From assembly GCA_965223265.1 (NCBI GenBank), contig OZ244999.1, positions 4,704,001 to 4,768,000 on the forward strand: a stretch of 64,000 bases of DNA. Reading direction: 5' to 3'. How positions within the stretch are numbered: position 1 is the stretch's first letter; each line of letters begins with the position of its first letter. Positions 58,944 to 63,970 of the stretch are shown piece by piece. The translations under genes were made by a program, and so were the position numbers. Origin of the DNA: Planctomycetota bacterium (GTDB taxonomy: Bacteria; Planctomycetota; UBA8108; SXIK01). Under the pieces are notes generated by a model. It was not told the origin of the DNA, did no database searches, and was given only the letters and a program-made list of their open reading frames with translations.

Positions 58944-59069
58944 GCTTCGCTTCAGTCGTGCGTCTAAAAGGTTCGTCTGAGGATCGCACGCCGTCCGATA
59001 CGACGCCAGATGACAACAACGGACACGAACGTTATGAGATTTCGAAACGAACTACGAAAGGAAAATCCA

Positions 59070-59390
59070 ATGACCGCGACAATCAAGAATGCTGACTTTG
59101 ATCAAACGGTGCTCGAGTCGAGCGTTCCGACACTCGTCGACTTTTGGGCCCCTTGGTGTCCGCCGTGCATCCAGCTCCACCCTACGATTGAGCAGATCGA
59201 CGAGGCAGCGGACGGCCGCTACAACGTAGTCAAAGTCAATGTTGATGAGGAACCAGAGCTCGCTGAGCGCTACGGAATCCAGTCACTGCCCACGCTCGTC
59301 GTGTTTGACGACGGCGAACCGGTCTCGAGGCTTGTAGGGCTCCAGCCCAAACAGACAATCGTAGATCTCCTCGAACGAGTCGAACGTTGA
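59070..59390 (+). CDS. trxA: Thioredoxin (WCPPC)
   Basis: LVDFWAPWCPPC, KVNVDE, YGIQSLPT. Confidence 0.88.
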   Translation: MTATIKNADFDQTVLESSVPTLVDFWAPWCPPCIQLHPTIEQIDEAADGRYNVVKVNVDEEPELAERYGIQSLPTLVVFDDGEPVSRLVGLQPKQTIVDLLERVER

Positions 59391-59586
59391 TTCGGTCTGA
59401 GGCGCAAGCCTTTCCTTTCGAGTTGATCACGGTTCATTGCGATTTCCGAAAGTGCTAAGTCCCACAGTATCTGGCGCGGAAATCCCAGATTAAATGGCAT
59501 GGTGCTGATTCGCGGGTGCGAGATGCGATTTGCGAGGCGAGAAGGCGCGGGTCGTCGTGTCCCGGACGGCACGACGACCCGGGGAA

Positions 59587-59904
59587 TCACGAAGGGCGAG
59601 GCGTGGCGCGAGCGTCACCGCGACGATCGCGGAGCTCGGCGAGGAACTCGACGGCGTCGACGAAATTCAGCCGCTTGACGATCATGACCAGGTCGATCGG
59701 GTTGAAGTTCGTCTCGCAGCGAAAGCAACGCGCGAGGTTGGTGGACGCCTTCGTCGCGGTGTTGAATTCGCGACACCGCGGACAGAGGAAGCGCACGTAG
59801 CCCTCGGAGATTTTCGCGGGGACGCCGAGCAGATCGAGGAGCCACGCGATCGGTATATCGTTTCTCAACGACCGCAGGAGCTTGCCGGAGAATCGTCCTG
59901 TCAT
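59587..59904 (-). CDS. Stand-alone primase-type (CHC2-like) zinc-finger protein
   Basis: FLCPRC...NLARCFRCETNFNPIDLVM...LNFVDAVEFL. Confidence 0.8.
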   Translation of the reverse strand: MTGRFSGKLLRSLRNDIPIAWLLDLLGVPAKISEGYVRFLCPRCREFNTATKASTNLARCFRCETNFNPIDLVMIVKRLNFVDAVEFLAELRDRRGDARATPRPS

Positions 59905-60194
59905 GCGACGCCACCTCCACCGCTCGGCGCCTTCAAATATCGGATTCGTTGCAGGCTCTCGAGATACTCTTCGAGGACGATCTGGAGCGCTCGCAGCTGA
60001 GCGCCCAAGGCGGCGAGATAGGCGTCTTGCTCGGTGTAGGAGGAGCGTTGCGTGTAGTCGAAGTCGAGATCGGGGTACGCGGCGTTCAGAGCGAACAGGG
60101 CGATCTCGAGGTTCGTCGCGAGGGTCATCAAAACGGCGAGCTCAGGATACTCGGCGAAGTCGTTGACTCGAGGCATCAGGGTCTTGTGGAACAT
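59901..60194 (-). CDS. Small helical hypothetical protein (transposon gene 4)
   Basis: GGAG RBS; ATGA coupling to the zinc-finger gene. Confidence 0.7.
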   Translation of the reverse strand: MFHKTLMPRVNDFAEYPELAVLMTLATNLEIALFALNAAYPDLDFDYTQRSSYTEQDAYLAALGAQLRALQIVLEEYLESLQRIRYLKAPSGGGGVA

Positions 60195-60213
60195 GGCGCG
60201 TCAGTCTCCGTTC

Positions 60214-61005
60214 TCAGGGCAGATGGAACTCGGGGGCGGTGTCGTTGACGAGCGCCTCGGAGATCTTCTGGACGTTCTTGCTCGCGGCCTGAATGAGGCA
60301 GGCGGTGGCGATGTTGTTGATGCGCCGCGGCACGCCGCTTGAGTAGTCGTGGATGAGCGACTTCGCTTCAGGCTCGAAGACTTTCTGCGAGGCGCCGGCT
60401 GCGCGCATCTGAAAGTCGATGTACTCGACCGTCTGCTCCTTGCTGAGCGGCGGCACGTGGTAGCGCACGCTGAGCCGATGCGTGAGATCGGCGTGGCGCG
60501 CTCGGGTAAGCTCCTTTCTCAGGGTCTCTTGTCCGCTGAGGAGGATCTTCAATGGCGGGCCGTCCTCGAGTCCGGAGCTGACCAGAAGTCTCAGATCGGT
60601 GAGCGACTCCGAAGGAAGCAGGTGCGCTTCATCGATGACGAGGATTGTCGTGTGCTCGTTCGCCCCGACGCGATCCAGGATCTGGAGGAAGAGCCGCTCC
60701 TTGCCACGGCGGGGCTGCTCGCCGAGGCTGGAAACCAGGAGCTTCAGAATGCCGTTTGCCCCGACGTAGGTCAGCGAGAGATAGATCGGGTCGTAGAGGT
60801 TGCGGCTCAGCGAGCGCACGAAGAGCTTCACCAGAGACGACTTCCCCACCCCGGTGAGTCCGGTCACCAGGCCGATCGAGCCCGACTTGGCGAGGTACTC
60901 CAGTCGAGCGAGTCCCTGGGTGATGCGCTCGTCGGAAAGAATCTGCTCGACGGGCGCGCGCTCGAGAAAGGGCTGCGTCGTCATCTTGAAATGGGTGGTG
61001 AACAT
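60214..61005 (-). CDS. ExeA-like AAA+ ATPase (transposition helper)
   Basis: TGATG coupling; MFTTHFKMTTQPF; Walker A GLTGVGKS; Walker B LVIDEAH; SGVPRRIN. Confidence 0.9.
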   Translation of the reverse strand: MFTTHFKMTTQPFLERAPVEQILSDERITQGLARLEYLAKSGSIGLVTGLTGVGKSSLVKLFVRSLSRNLYDPIYLSLTYVGANGILKLLVSSLGEQPRRGKERLFLQILDRVGANEHTTILVIDEAHLLPSESLTDLRLLVSSGLEDGPPLKILLSGQETLRKELTRARHADLTHRLSVRYHVPPLSKEQTVEYIDFQMRAAGASQKVFEPEAKSLIHDYSSGVPRRINNIATACLIQAASKNVQKISEALVNDTAPEFHLP

Positions 61006-62567
61006 CAGTCCTCCTTTCTGCCTGCGAGTCGTTGAAGCTCGTAGGCGATGTAGGGAATGGATTTCTCCGGAGCCTTCTCGAAGGCCCTCAGCAAGAGGAC
61101 TTCGGTGAGGCTGGGAGTACGGTTGTAGAACTTCTTGAGTTCCTCGAGCTCCTCGGCGGTGAAGCTCGAGAGGGCGCCCTTGCGCCCCATGAGCCGGCCG
61201 AGAAGGCATGCGAAGTCGGTGAAGGGCCACTGGCGAGAGGCGATGACACGACGGTAGTCGATCCCCTGGGCGCGCTTCTTGAGCTCCTCGTCGTGCTCAC
61301 GGCGAAGAAGCTCCAGATAGTTGTGCTTCGCTTTGGCGGGAGGGGCGGGAGCACCGGCGTCCTCGCCCTCTTCGCGCTCGTGAAGGACGCCCTTTCCGAG
61401 GTACTCTTCGTTGCTGGAGTAGATGAGAACCGTGTCGGGCGCGGAGAAGGGATCGTAGCGGACTTCGACCTTGTCACCGCGCAGACTCTTGTCGACGCGA
61501 TAGAAGCGGCGATCGAGCTGGACGTCGGAGAAGTCCGGGTGAACGCGCCGCGTCTCGCGGCACATGAAGAACTCGGTGACGCGCTGAATGTCGACGTGTC
61601 GGATAGGCCGTTTGAGGCCGGCCTCGGCTCGTGCCTCGGGTGTTTCGCCGGTCTCGGTGTTGACCTGGCGGTGGTAGGCCACGGTCTTCCAGGAATCGAA
61701 GCTTCCGTTGAGCGAGTCGAGAGTGAGGATCTCGCCGGCTCTGACCTCGGCCTCGAACTGGCCCTGTATCGTCTCGATGAGTCGTTCGACGAGACCACCC
61801 GGTGGCGGATCGCCCTTGCCGCGATGGATGAGCCGGGTGACAACGGCAAGGCATGCCGCCTTGAGCGCTTTGGAGATATAGACCTTCGCCTGATCGACAT
61901 AGAGCTCGTCCGAAGCACCGTGCTTGGCCCACGCCCGCAGCAAGCAGTCGATCAAGACCTCGAGATTTTGCCGAAGGTAGTAGCGCCCCTCGACGAGCGA
62001 GCGGCTGTAGCAGTCGATGAGAACACAGAGGAAGGTGGGGACGACTTCGCCGTCGTGCAGCACGTAGGGTCCATCGGCGAAGTCGCCGACCCAGAGGGCA
62101 TGGGTGGAGTCACGAGTCCAGCGTTTCCGGACTTTCCTCCTCTCGACACCGAGCTTCAGCCGCGTCGCGCCGGCGATCTTGAGGTAGCGGAAGAGGGTCG
62201 AACGCGGAATGGTCTTTCCGTGCTGAGCCTGGAGGAACTTGTTGATGGCGAAGTGGGAGCGCAGTGGCTGATCACGCTTCAGCTCGACGGCTTTCTCGAC
62301 GAGCTCTTTGCCGTGGGCACGCGGTTTCCCGCGATCGCTTCGCGGCCTGCGGGCAAGACCCTCGAAGCCCTCCTCGCGATAGATGCGAAGCTTCCGCCTC
62401 AGGGTCGAAAGAGCCGGCTTGCGTCGCGATCCGTCGGGAAAGATGCGCTCTTCTTTGGCGAGCTCGCGGAGAAATCGCGCGGCTTCCTCCTCCGGCACCT
62501 CGCCGATGACGACGGGCTGGAGAAGAGCCGCCCAGAAGATAGCCCAATCGAGATCTTTCGCTTTCAT
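61005..62567 (-). CDS. DDE transposase/integrase (rve core, Mu-like C-terminal domain)
   Basis: GAGGTG RBS; HTH then RSDRG; WVGD, LYVDQ, GLVERL triad; KVEVRYDP. Confidence 0.92.
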   Translation of the reverse strand: MKAKDLDWAIFWAALLQPVVIGEVPEEEAARFLRELAKEERIFPDGSRRKPALSTLRRKLRIYREEGFEGLARRPRSDRGKPRAHGKELVEKAVELKRDQPLRSHFAINKFLQAQHGKTIPRSTLFRYLKIAGATRLKLGVERRKVRKRWTRDSTHALWVGDFADGPYVLHDGEVVPTFLCVLIDCYSRSLVEGRYYLRQNLEVLIDCLLRAWAKHGASDELYVDQAKVYISKALKAACLAVVTRLIHRGKGDPPPGGLVERLIETIQGQFEAEVRAGEILTLDSLNGSFDSWKTVAYHRQVNTETGETPEARAEAGLKRPIRHVDIQRVTEFFMCRETRRVHPDFSDVQLDRRFYRVDKSLRGDKVEVRYDPFSAPDTVLIYSSNEEYLGKGVLHEREEGEDAGAPAPPAKAKHNYLELLRREHDEELKKRAQGIDYRRVIASRQWPFTDFACLLGRLMGRKGALSSFTAEELEELKKFYNRTPSLTEVLLLRAFEKAPEKSIPYIAYELQRLAGRKED

Positions 62568-62607
62568 GATCACACCTCGCATGGGGCGAGCGAGGCGTGA
62601 TTCTCGC

Positions 62608-63276
62608 TCACGCCCAGGCTGCGGAGGTTGCCAAGTCGGGGAAGATCGATCGGCCGAAGAGGGAACGGAACACCTGGTCGATCGAGAGAGCTCGAAGTGC
62701 CGCGACGAGAGTGTCCCGCCGTGATTCGCTTCGGTACTTGGCTGGACGGACGGCGAAGACCTTGCGGAAGATGTCGGACCTCGCCGAGCGCTCTCGGATG
62801 AGGCGGAGAGCCTCCAGGAGCGTGGCGTTGAGAGAGCGAAAGAACGAAAGCCAACGATGAAGTGTTGAGTGCGCGAGGCTGCGCTCGTCGATCGCTCCCC
62901 TGTCGTCACCCTCGTGGAAGACGGGCATGTGTTCGACCTTGACGGCTTCGCGATACGAAAGCTCGTCGATCTGGAGGTAGCGCCGAGCGTGATCGAAAAC
63001 GCAGTCGCGAACGTAGCGTTTCCCCGGCAGCGCGAAGGGCGGGTAGAGCGTGAAGGAGCGCTTACACAGAGGACACTTCCAGCGACTCAGAAGCGACAGG
63101 ACAGGTTCGACCAGACGCCTGACGATAACGAGGAACACGCGCTCTCGGTGACCGCGGTAGCGGAACCGATCTGGCTCCCCGCTGCAATTCGGGCAGCGGT
63201 TACAGGTCGGCTGGATCTCACGGCGGCGAACAGCTTCGCCATAGCTCTGTATCGCGTTGACCAAATGGGGTAGCAT
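62608..63276 (-). CDS. Zinc-ribbon and HTH protein (DUF6431-like; transposon gene 1)
   Basis: CPNC...RWKCPLC..SFT.YP.FALPGKRY; HSTLHRW. Confidence 0.78.
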   Translation of the reverse strand: MLPHLVNAIQSYGEAVRRREIQPTCNRCPNCSGEPDRFRYRGHRERVFLVIVRRLVEPVLSLLSRWKCPLCKRSFTLYPPFALPGKRYVRDCVFDHARRYLQIDELSYREAVKVEHMPVFHEGDDRGAIDERSLAHSTLHRWLSFFRSLNATLLEALRLIRERSARSDIFRKVFAVRPAKYRSESRRDTLVAALRALSIDQVFRSLFGRSIFPDLATSAAWA

Positions 63277-63577
63277 CGCTCTCTCCGTACGGGGACTTGC
63301 GGAGAGAAGTGCACCAACACCGGTCTCTCCGCTCCCCTCTTTACTCGAGGTGAGGCGAGGAGTCGAGCGAAGGTCCAGGGCGCAGCGTCGAACGGGGGGC
63401 GCGGGGTAGGCGGGGTATGATCGGACGGTCGGTTCGGCGGGGTATGCCGGGGCGTTTCCGGGTCAGTGAATCTGAGACTCGTCGCTGCTCACGAGCCAGA
63501 GTTTGTGGGACTCAGCACGAAAGTACTAAAGTCAGTCAGCAGAATCACACCACCGCTTCTCCTGGAGGATACTGATC

Positions 63578-63970
63578 ATGGACCCAAGGTTCATTACCAA
63601 GAAGATGCACGCCTTTCTCGACTACCCGGTGGCCCTCAGTCTCATGGTGCTGCCGTTCGTTCTAGGCCTCGGAACCTCGAGCCCGTCTGCACTGTCGCTC
63701 TCGGTCGTAGCGGGAGTTGCCGCCTTGATCCTAACGCTGCTTACCGATCACGAATTGGGTGCGTTTCGCATTCTGCCGTACCGCGTCCACCTCACAGTAG
63801 ACCTTCTGGTCGGAGTTGTGTTTGTCGCTGCTCCGCTTGCCCTTGGTTTCGAAGGGCTCGACACTTGGTACTACTGGCTAAACGGTGGCGCCGTGCTCGC
63901 CGTCGTCGGGCTGCACCGACCGGATCCGGTGCCGCGTGCCCCAGTTGCGGATGACGCGGCCGCAGCTTGA
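63578..63970 (+). CDS. SPW-repeat-like four-TM membrane protein
   Basis: GGAGG RBS; HAFLDY, LLTDHELG, VHLTVD. Confidence 0.78.
   Translation: MDPRFITKKMHAFLDYPVALSLMVLPFVLGLGTSSPSALSLSVVAGVAALILTLLTDHELGAFRILPYRVHLTVDLLVGVVFVAAPLALGFEGLDTWYYWLNGGAVLAVVGLHRPDPVPRAPVADDAAAA

Follow-up and report, generated by a model that had tools for sequence, protein, structure and literature searches.

A 64,000-nt stretch of the genome of a Planctomycetota bacterium, called the window here and used for all coordinates, contains five small genes between inverted ends and short direct repeats. This raised the questions whether the locus is an intact transposon, to which family it belongs and which roles its accessory genes may have. 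The element occupies positions 59453-63517, 4065 bp with the tips TG..CA. The terminal inverted repeat at the end of gene E (59453..59478) has its tip TG on the plus strand and carries a motif conserved in relatives; the repeat at the end of gene A (63492..63517) has its tip CA on the plus strand. The inverted ends beginning with TG, described in the initial annotation, were measured as imperfect arms of 27 nt (59452-59478 and 63492-63518) with 81 % complementarity, the longest inverted pair of the region. The exact duplication CGAAAG was likewise borne out. Direct reading and the genomic copies placed its left copy at 59447..59452 and its right copy at 63518..63523, both directly abutting the TG...CA tips from outside. 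The proposed check on the rest of the assembly revealed ten copies of the 4065-bp unit in the 9.18-Mb genome at 100 % identity; one synonymous change was common to two of the ten. Six-bp direct repeats, different at each site, flanked 10 of 10 copies. The identical copies with their distinct duplications confirmed an intact transposon with defined ends, and ten copies, each with its own 6-bp duplication, argue for an active one. The element is far beyond chance. In the contigs of four short-read runs the element appeared as a stand-alone contig (59453-63517 in X2-X4, 59452-63517 in X1) with a depth of about 8-21x that of the flanks. These runs are not independent, because they represent a single sample, from which the assembly was probably made. 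Neither an excision nor a circle junction was seen in the short-read contigs. The five ORFs within the element, all on the minus strand, were confirmed as co-oriented, and the two coupled pairs overlap in TGATG (B stop, C start) and ATGA (D stop, E start).

Gene A (62608..63276, minus strand) encodes a DUF6431-type protein of 222 aa according to Pfam, Atlas, profile search and structure model. The match to DUF6431 (PF20020; E 2.8e-4, 21.1 bits) lies below the Pfam cut-off of 26.6; in the Atlas, 29 of 30 matches belonged to one set of DUF6431 clusters. The protein combines an N-terminal Cys-rich, zinc-ribbon-like beta-hairpin with a C-terminal helical domain. The structure model had a mean pLDDT of 83.5, and the fold comparison gave no clear match. 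At E<=1e-3 the search gave homologues in 822 cluster representatives. Lengths among the best 150 were 132-318 aa, with about 125 falling within 180-260 aa, and no fusion to a larger protein was found among these 150. Gene B (61005..62567, minus strand) codes for a DDE transposase of 520 aa by Pfam, NCBIfam, PHROG and profile matches; its start is an internal Met of the ORF 61005-62909. Behind the HTH come an RNase-H-like core and a beta-barrel of the Mu type, and about 130 aa form a C-terminal tail; the Pfam domains are HTH_32, rve and Mu-transpos_C (PF09299, 32.7 bits, cut-off 21.7). The candidate triad D162, D225 and E261 was invariant in 22 sequences. B matched the PHROG 310 transposase with 8.6e-29. 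A 1-nt frameshift in B was present in all 16 copies of the family in the genome G167. Gene C (60214..61005, minus strand; Pfam, NCBIfam, PHROG and PDB profile) encodes an ATPase of 263 aa, an AAA+ protein of the ExeA/MuB/TnsC type. The motifs Walker A (G49-S56) and Walker B (D125-E126) are invariant in the alignment. C matched AAA_22 (1.7e-17), PHROG 296 'DNA transposition protein' (2.6e-25) and, with 120.8 bits below the cut-off of 324.5, TIGR03015. Gene D (59901..60194, minus strand) encodes a putatively helical protein of 97 aa of no known family, with no match in Pfam, NCBIfam or PHROG and no lead from the Atlas search. Only two other homologues, 86 % and 58 % identical, were obtained in a search of 5.8 billion proteins. 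Judged from these sequences, D is a lineage-specific addition of close kin only.

Gene E (59587..59904, minus strand; 105 aa) encodes a stand-alone homologue of the DnaG primase zinc-binding domain by Pfam and profile comparison. An inverted repeat with an 11-bp stem (59549..59580, minus strand) is located just past its stop codon; no T-run follows, and it was not called by the terminator scan. The match to Pfam Zn_ribbon_DnaG (E 1.5e-4, 22.0 bits) fell just below the cut-off of 24.9, which two paralogues in the genome exceeded with 27.6 and 25.6 bits. Positions 1-91 of the family profile aligned with residues 1-91 of the primase zinc-binding domain 1d0q (E 1.4e-4). The four Cys ligands C41, C44, C60 and C63 occupy the matching columns of 1d0q, with Cys replacing His, and 19 columns were invariant among 23 sequences. 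The homology thus covers the whole domain, a four-ligand ribbon with one helix N-terminal and further helices C-terminal to it. In the source genome, paralogues of E follow two IstB_IS21 genes and also an AAA_25 ATPase gene.

The gene order was compared among relatives. At E<=1e-20, 1282 transposase homologues were obtained among 8000 scored; 161 relatives were found in species-representative genomes, and 80 were kept for the gene-order analysis. Such relatives are frequent in Planctomycetota and Thermodesulfobacteriota and also in other phyla, and multi-copy elements of the family, 3.69-4.32 kb in size, occur in four other genomes. The order A-B-C-E (DUF6431, DDE transposase, AAA+ ATPase, DnaG-type zinc ribbon) was present in 71 of 80 loci; A was upstream in 76 and E followed C in 71. 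Six of the nine loci without E were truncated by the end of the contig or of the element; the other three, all of one clade, had another ORF. Homologues of E follow C-like genes even at 26 % identity of C and 28-29 % of B. In 18 aligned lineages, which belong to several phyla, A, C and E were 26-47 %, 49-70 % and 43-63 % identical in a conserved order. Of the 80 related loci only one had D, located there after E instead of before it. The reading as a five-gene unit therefore held only in part: all five genes are present, but D is confined to close kin and A-B-C-E recurs in 71 of 80 loci, so that the core comprises four genes. This operon of A, B, C and E is conserved.

A second terminal-repeat core lies inside each end: a degenerate copy, TCCCAGATT (59479..59498), about 31 nt from the E-end tip, and AGTCTCAGATT (63463..63480), about 40 nt from the tip at the A-gene end. 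Within 26-45 nt from the tip, 14 of 18 E-ends contained such a core, as did 16 of 18 A-ends, compared with 86 of 602 interior windows; the core is presumed to be a second transposase site. By analogy to Mu, Tn7 and IS21, B would bind the terminal repeat and the second subterminal copy at each end, pair the ends, cleave the 3' ends and transfer the strands with a 6-bp stagger. C with ATP would bind target DNA and hand the target to B, probably via the C-terminal tail of B. A TnsA-like nuclease and a resolvase are not encoded in the element according to Pfam and NCBIfam; hence transposition would be replicative with resolution by host recombination, or would follow a route invisible in the sequence.

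The A-end carries in addition an array of 3-4 (T)ACCCCGC(C) repeats in the same direction (63390..63450, minus strand), about 73-126 nt from the tip. Sixteen of 17 distinct E-bearing elements had 3-6 forward CCCGC motifs in the first 200 nt of the A-end; G167 had one exact CCCGC only, plus variants. In the E-bearing elements the forward motif was absent from the E-end and amounted to 0-0.55 per 200 nt in the interior. A cruder count over the 200 nt upstream of gene A gave no motif for 11 of the 35 E-bearing rows; the tip-anchored count detected the array in three of these, the other eight being not anchorable. Two loci of the E-less clade, L036 and L040, keep A without the array; the tip of L061 is off its contig. 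An IstA/IstB element of the same genome, unrelated to the 4065-bp element, carries a paralogue of E; near its left tip, in the corresponding position, are 3-4 ACCCCGC repeats. For the genome background, 298 of 183,587 windows had at least three ACCCCGC repeats. In two C-E lineages at a greater distance the ends had repeats of other kinds, and an ACCCCGC array was not clearly present. Support for a link of E with the array comes from a single loss event and one further element.

These co-occurrences suggest that E may act together with the AAA+ protein and make it the best candidate for a reader of the one-sided array, with A as the alternative; the array would make the two ends unequal. A different role of E, doubtful but deserving attention, would follow strand transfer: at the forked intermediate of replicative transposition it would help to load or restrain host priming, and the array would be a site for A or for the HTH of B, or an operator of the operon. 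Such a role would suit a full-length primase-type domain in an element that encodes neither a nuclease for the 5' cut nor a resolvase, as well as the paralogues after an AAA_25 ATPase gene, and the array is located just upstream of gene A, the expected place of a promoter. Against it, the E-less clade keeps A and is without the array in the two readable of three loci, while the IstA/IstB element with E has the array and no A gene.

The length of the duplication had been singled out for verification: among 48 copies in five genomes it was 6 bp in 27, 7 bp in four and 5 bp in one, i.e., 6 bp in 27 of 32 intact cases. No matched duplication was present in 16 copies, 11 of them in one genome with flanks shuffled between copies; later recombination could explain the missing duplications as well as replicative transposition could. 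Among the 27 six-bp duplications, position 3 was T in 17 and position 4 was A in 18. The ten insertion sites were scattered round the chromosome, several inside long ORFs, and had no common sequence; seven copies were co-directional with replication and three head-on. Target choice is loose: a central TA is weakly preferred, and there is no tie to replication direction. The initial annotation had considered a replication-fork selector in the manner of TnsE or TniQ. With scattered sites and no replication-orientation bias, a TnsE-like role is unsupported, and the five proteins had no Pfam or NCBIfam match to TniQ, TnsD/TnsE, TnsA or a resolvase at E<=0.1. It is thus improbable that the element is of the Tn7/Tn5053 type, with A or E as a TniQ or TnsE directing it in one orientation to a fixed site or to forks. 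Several features resemble Tn7, Tn5053 and CAST elements: the best solved relative of the B profile is TnsB (1.6e-10), C is a TnsC-like ATPase with a weak match to ShTnsC (9.4e-5), the two ends are unequal, and a small accessory gene comes next after the ATPase gene, which is also the place of tniQ in Tn5053; a primase-type domain reading single-stranded DNA would also suit fork targeting. C had a better score with MuB than with ShTnsC, and B had better scores with IS481 and PHROG 310 than with TnsB. Mu and Tn7-like elements produce 5-bp target duplications, a length seen in 1 of 32 intact cases, and neither site nor orientation specificity was seen in the ten copies.

Even less probable is an ordinary IS481-family insertion sequence in which A, C, D and E are cargo without a role in transposition. 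IS481 elements have a single gene and about 1 kb. IS481 (NF033577) was the best named model for the HTH and catalytic core of B (E 7.9e-30), matched by residues 54-310 to positions 28-280 of 284, but the 104.3 bits are far under the cut-off of 224. B also has the beta-barrel and the 130-aa tail, and the ATPase and two accessory genes are added. The 6-bp duplication with its central TA resembles the consensus NCTAGN given for IS481 in PMC3053399. A, C and E retained their order at 26-70 % identity in 18 lineages, whereas real cargo varies, e.g., D in the present element and a SEC-C/TPR gene in D. suflitae.

Among other two-protein systems, IS21 likewise has a DDE transposase gene that overlaps the next gene, which encodes an AAA+ helper, and the IS21-like element of the source genome carries an E-type gene and the ACCCCGC array. 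However, the scores for IstA (NF033546, 21.8, cut-off 160) and IstB (NF038214, 13.3, cut-off 200) were low, and C belongs to a different AAA+ branch. Tn552 of Staphylococcus encodes the transposase p480, the ATP-binding p271 and the resolvase BinL, contains a res site and generates 6- or 7-bp duplications. Its ends have arrays of repeats according to PMC8649781. By description only, the present element is similar in the transposase and ATP-binding pair, the duplication length and the end repeat arrays; it differs by the absence of a recombinase domain and res site and by the additional A and E. The likeness to MuA and MuB comprises the Mu-type C-terminal beta-barrel of B above the Pfam cut-off, a small AAA+ partner with MuB as best solved relative (6.7e-7), matches of B and C to PHROG transposition families and more than one transposase-site copy per end. 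The present element is non-phage, with a 6-bp duplication and two extra zinc-finger proteins. A remnant of a Mu-like transposable prophage, to which the PHROG transposase and DNA transposition protein matches might point, can practically be dismissed: the 4065 bp hold five small genes and no phage structural or lysis genes, PHROG matches are limited to DNA primase and the proteins of transposition, a tblastn search with B and C against 50,697 phage records gave nothing at 1e-6, and all ten copies have identical compact ends.

A related arrangement is an unclassified DUF6431 / DDE / AAA repeat cassette with 15 copies in Clostridium sp. JS66 (bioRxiv 10.64898/2026.08.16.744336). It shares with the present element the first three genes, their order and the multi-copy state; the passages of that preprint cited here describe no zinc-ribbon fourth gene, ends or duplications. 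The set DUF6431, DDE, small ORF and AAA ATPase is found on a Streptomyces plasmid. The Clostridium cassette was the only related three-gene unit that text searches of the literature brought up, and none of the named IS-family models reached its cut-off with the proteins of the element, in agreement with the earlier view of a distinct family. We regard 59453-63517, with a probability of about 0.8, as an active, autonomous DDE transposon with ten copies in the genome and as a representative of a widespread family that is nameless so far as searched.

The element under study occupies positions 59453-63517 of the window (4065 bp). The longest inverted pair of the region, 27 nt with 81 % complementarity, lies at 59452-59478 and 63492-63518; the tips read TG...CA, and CGAAAG follows immediately beyond each of them. 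The five genes are all on the minus strand: A (62608-63276), B (61005-62567, DDE transposase), C (60214-61005, AAA+ ATPase), D (59901-60194, 97 aa) and E (59587-59904, DnaG-type zinc ribbon). The stop of B overlaps the start of C in TGATG, the stop of D the start of E in ATGA. Ten copies of the 4065-bp unit are present in the 9.18-Mb single-contig genome. Eight are identical; the other two share a single synonymous substitution in B (GGT to GGC). Every copy is flanked by a 6-bp direct repeat of its own, which confirmed the intact transposon with defined ends and a 6-bp duplication described in the initial annotation. The element is an active transposon. In assemblies of four short-read runs from one sample, the unit was obtained as a stand-alone contig covering 59453-63517 in three runs (X2-X4) and 59452-63517 in the fourth (X1), at about 8-21 times the depth of its flanks. 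The genome assembly was probably made from this same sample, thus the limits are confirmed, but by support that is not independent. Circle or empty-site joints were not seen in the short-read contigs. Scans of the element revealed no site resembling a promoter; one resembling a terminator was called within gene D, and shuffled sequences gave more. The copy in the window sits between a thioredoxin-like gene (59010-59390) and a small membrane-protein-like ORF (63578-63970); it lies 57 nt past the stop of the former, and no gene was broken by the insertion.

Protein B was matched by the Pfam models rve, Mu-transpos_C and HTH_32. The IS481 model covered its HTH and catalytic core with 104.3 bits against a cut-off of 224, and the phage-transposase family PHROG 310 was matched at 8.6e-29. 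The best solved relative of the B family profile was TnsB (1.6e-10, core and barrel); D162, D225 and E261 were invariant in 22 sequences. Protein C was assigned to AAA_22 by Pfam, matched an ExeA-like TIGRFAM over its full length under the cut-off, and matched PHROG 296, 'DNA transposition protein', at 2.6e-25. Among solved structures MuB ranked first (6.7e-7) and ShTnsC next (9.4e-5), and the Walker A and B motifs were invariant. The element would work in like manner to the class of Mu, Tn7, Tn552 and IS21. By homology to Mu, Tn7 and IS21, B would bind two sites per end, pair the ends and transfer the 3' ends to the target with a 6-bp stagger, while C with ATP would hold the target DNA and activate B, probably via the 130-aa tail of B. 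Neither a second nuclease nor a resolvase was found by Pfam and NCBIfam among the five proteins, so the element may move replicatively and leave the resolution of the products to host recombination.

Target duplications were pooled for 48 copies from five genomes. The duplication was 6 bp in 27 copies, 7 bp in four and 5 bp in one, and 16 copies had no matched repeat. Position 3 of the 6-bp duplications was T in 17 cases and position 4 was A in 18. Eleven of the 16 unmatched copies belong to a single genome, G167, in which copies have exchanged flanks. Among the 16 copies of that genome (L138-L153), 11 are without a matched duplication, and several have a flank in common with another copy or adjoin the same 351-bp repeat. 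The pattern points to rearrangement between copies or to nested insertion. Later recombination between copies fits the shuffled flanks as well, which are equally compatible with replicative movement. The preference for replication-fork targets suggested in the initial annotation left no sign: cumulative GC skew placed the origin at about 7.9 Mb and the terminus at about 3.5 Mb, the genes of seven copies run co-directionally with replication and those of three head-on, the ten copies are scattered round the chromosome, and at least five of the rebuilt empty sites lie within ORFs of 411-1260 codons. A replichore bias was dropped, seven of ten being no bias.

Homologues of B were numerous (1282 at E<=1e-20 among 8000 candidates scored); the best 120 of the 1282 had identities of 54-76 % and a length of about 520 aa. 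Many lie on contigs of roughly 4 kb, the size that a collapsed repeat would give. An earlier locus scan with single-protein patterns yielded no loci; a profile scan in which each species was represented by one genome gave 161 relatives, of which 80 loci were kept. These were from Planctomycetota, Thermodesulfobacteriota, Chloroflexota, Pseudomonadota and others, with an element size of 3.6-4.5 kb in the family; the cultured Desulfoferrobacter suflitae DRH4 has at least eight copies. The gene content of the 80 loci was read by tblastn with the five proteins. Gene A lies upstream of B in 76 loci, and the contigs of the remaining four begin inside B. Directly behind C, gene E was present in 71 loci. 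Six of the nine loci without E end or are broken ahead of its place; the other three (L036, L040 and L061) have an unrelated ORF of 116-120 aa there. In a tree of 58 transposases, calculated without duplicates and without rows that had stops, <480 or >540 aa, these three loci formed one clade (100/100) nested among E-bearing lines. Gene D was detected in one of the 80 loci (L024), placed after E instead of before; the transposase of the window pairs with that of L024 (91/91). A search of 5.8 billion proteins gave two other homologues of D, with 86 % and 58 % identity, and no family was assigned to D by Pfam, NCBIfam, PHROG or Atlas. An additional gene in D. suflitae (L047, 4686-5294, minus strand), coding for a 202-aa SEC-C motif and TPR protein, lies on the opposite strand between the A-end and gene A; such cargo was not seen in the other lineages. 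From the gene counts over the 80 loci and the rarity of D, the core is therefore the four genes A-B-C-E, D is a lineage-specific addition, and true cargo differs by lineage. The five-gene unit initially proposed thus held for the order of A, B, C and E, kept in 71 loci, and failed for D.

Near-identical transposases occurred in the tree in bins of different phyla, e.g., Planctomycetota with Desulfobacterales, and one bin of a 'Thermoplasmatales archaeon' was among them. This reflects either horizontal spread or mis-binned 4-kb repeat contigs. All 16 copies of the 3790-bp relative in G167 share an identical 1-nt frameshift in gene B, just ahead of the region of the first catalytic Asp. Programmed frameshifting, a systematic error of the assembly or a defective lineage that is mobilised in trans could each account for it.

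Protein A belongs to DUF6431; its Pfam match is weak, and 29 of 30 Atlas hits are DUF6431 clusters. Its profile collected 822 cluster representatives; among the best 150 of these, sizes were 132-318 aa, about 125 being of 180-260 aa, and none was fused to a larger protein. The predicted model is confident (pLDDT 83.5) and has a long beta-hairpin bearing the Cys pairs, followed by a helical domain. Foldseek found no match to this model at E<=0.001, and the profile had none in the PDB at E<=10. A wide structure search stayed within noise (Z <=4.6), with the zinc-ribbon part resembling NrdR (Z 3.4-3.5) and the helical part HTH regulators (about Z 3); thus no fold match rose above noise. Protein E scored marginally below the cut-off of the Pfam DnaG zinc ribbon. 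Its alignment with 1d0q, a primase zinc-binding domain, ran from end to end, its four Cys falling on the Cys-His-Cys-Cys columns, and 19 columns were invariant in 23 sequences. A predicted complex of C and E reached 0.31 against a mark of 0.32. As A and E are kept across phyla, both are presumably needed in some way.

The two ends of the element differ. Each has a terminal repeat of about 22 nt, the core of which recurs in degenerate form 26-45 nt from the tip; this second copy was seen at 16 of the 18 A-ends and 14 of the 18 E-ends, versus 86 of 602 interior windows. Only the A-end has an array of 3-6 ACCCCGC-type repeats, all in the same direction. At least three forward CCCGC were present in the first 200 nt of the A-end in 16 of 17 distinct E-bearing elements; none of the elements had any at the E-end, and interiors had 0-0.55 per 200 nt. 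The A-end of the G167 relative has one exact copy and variants. A cruder count upstream of gene A found no motif in 11 of 35 E-bearing rows; three of these show the array by the tip-anchored count and eight are un-anchorable. The clade without E keeps A, and the array is absent in both A-ends that are readable among its three loci. Near the A-end of one of them (L040, 1-400) are several sequences resembling DnaA boxes of the TTATCCACA type; its close relative L036 is without them.

Matches to the E profile occurred in 14 of 301 genomes of the phylum, the weakest, in frames of 400-617 aa, being taken to be primases. Elsewhere E lies behind a C-like gene, down to identities of 26 % for C and 28-29 % for B; the ACCCCGC array was not evident in two distant C-E lineages. 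The genome of the window has three further E paralogues, two of them behind IstB_IS21 genes, of which the first is full-length (E 5.5e-59) and the second a fragment. The former belongs to an IS21-like element of 6.8 kb (2466751-2473538) that encodes IstA and IstB, contains a nested serine recombinase and other inserts and has an E-type zinc-ribbon gene at its end. Its own inverted repeats are imperfect and about 40 nt long (88 % over 41 nt), its duplication is 6 bp (CCCAAG), and 3-4 ACCCCGC repeats lie at a distance of about 45-115 nt from the left tip, a relative place matching that in the family described here; in the genome background, 298 of 183,587 windows have at least three forward CCCGC. 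The IstB_IS21 fragment is followed at once by an E-type gene of 94 aa (809070-809761; Pfam 27.6 bits). Upstream, a Cys-rich ORF without a family resembles the ORF that comes first in the IS21-like element at 2.467 Mb. The third E-type gene follows an AAA_25 ATPase gene (2477550-2478805), a pair that may be a primase-helicase-like module, not a transposon. The region around the IS21-like element (2464510-2477571) holds a degenerate, more distant DUF6431/DDE/ExeA-like element. Its transposase is split, the IS21-like element and other inserts break up its ATPase gene, and a solo left end of the IS21-like type, bearing three ACCCCGC repeats, sits in its transposase remnant.

Loss of the array in the clade without E and its presence in the E-bearing IstA/IstB element together point to E. 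On one loss event and one second element, E is a tentative candidate for the reader of the array. We consider, with a probability of roughly 0.3, that E is a portable factor for the AAA+ target-capture ATPases of unrelated transposons, reading a one-sided ACCCCGC array that sets end asymmetry or the assembly of the transposition complex. On this reading, the ATPases served would be the MuB/ExeA-like protein here and IstB in the IS21-like element.

Controlled DNA insertion is best understood from transposons that combine a DDE enzyme with an AAA+ protein for target handling (Mu, Tn7, CAST and IS21), and programmable insertion tools are based on transposons of this type. For the two accessory proteins A and E, we know of no counterpart in the studied systems. 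Judged from its sequences, the element appears to be a distinct family within this known class. The distinctness claimed at the outset was borne out, the model cut-offs for IS481 and IS21 not being reached. Unlike Tn7-like elements it is without TnsA, TniQ and a resolvase, and its duplication is 6 bp, not the 5 bp of Mu and Tn7. Neither B nor C had a match by tblastn in 50,697 phage records. Relatives in a plasmid collection had only about 30 % identity; a Streptomyces plasmid carries DUF6431, DDE, a small ORF and an AAA ATPase, a Thermobacillus plasmid DDE and AAA only. In Clostridium sp. JS66, 15 copies of a three-gene repeat of DUF6431, DDE and AAA were left unclassified in the accessible part of a preprint (bioRxiv 10.64898/2026.08.16.744336). 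A table in a paper on R. gnavus places DDE and DUF6431 genes side by side, and the portion of Benler et al. 2021 available to us does not cover the A-B-C-E family. The JS66 preprint was the sole description of the cassette found in the literature, a comparison that did not extend to ISfinder or TnCentral.

Clean ends, a simple duplication and D. suflitae as a cultured host that is not a pathogen make single-gene tests feasible. The family is compact, clearly active and common in environmental bacteria, and one of its accessory proteins is borrowed from primase. It accounts for many annotations as 'DUF6431', 'DDE-type integrase', 'AAA family ATPase' and 'CHC2 zinc finger', as well as for orphan contigs of about 4 kb in metagenome assemblies. 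If E is indeed portable, it would represent a new class of accessory proteins in transposons, one co-opted from the replication machinery.
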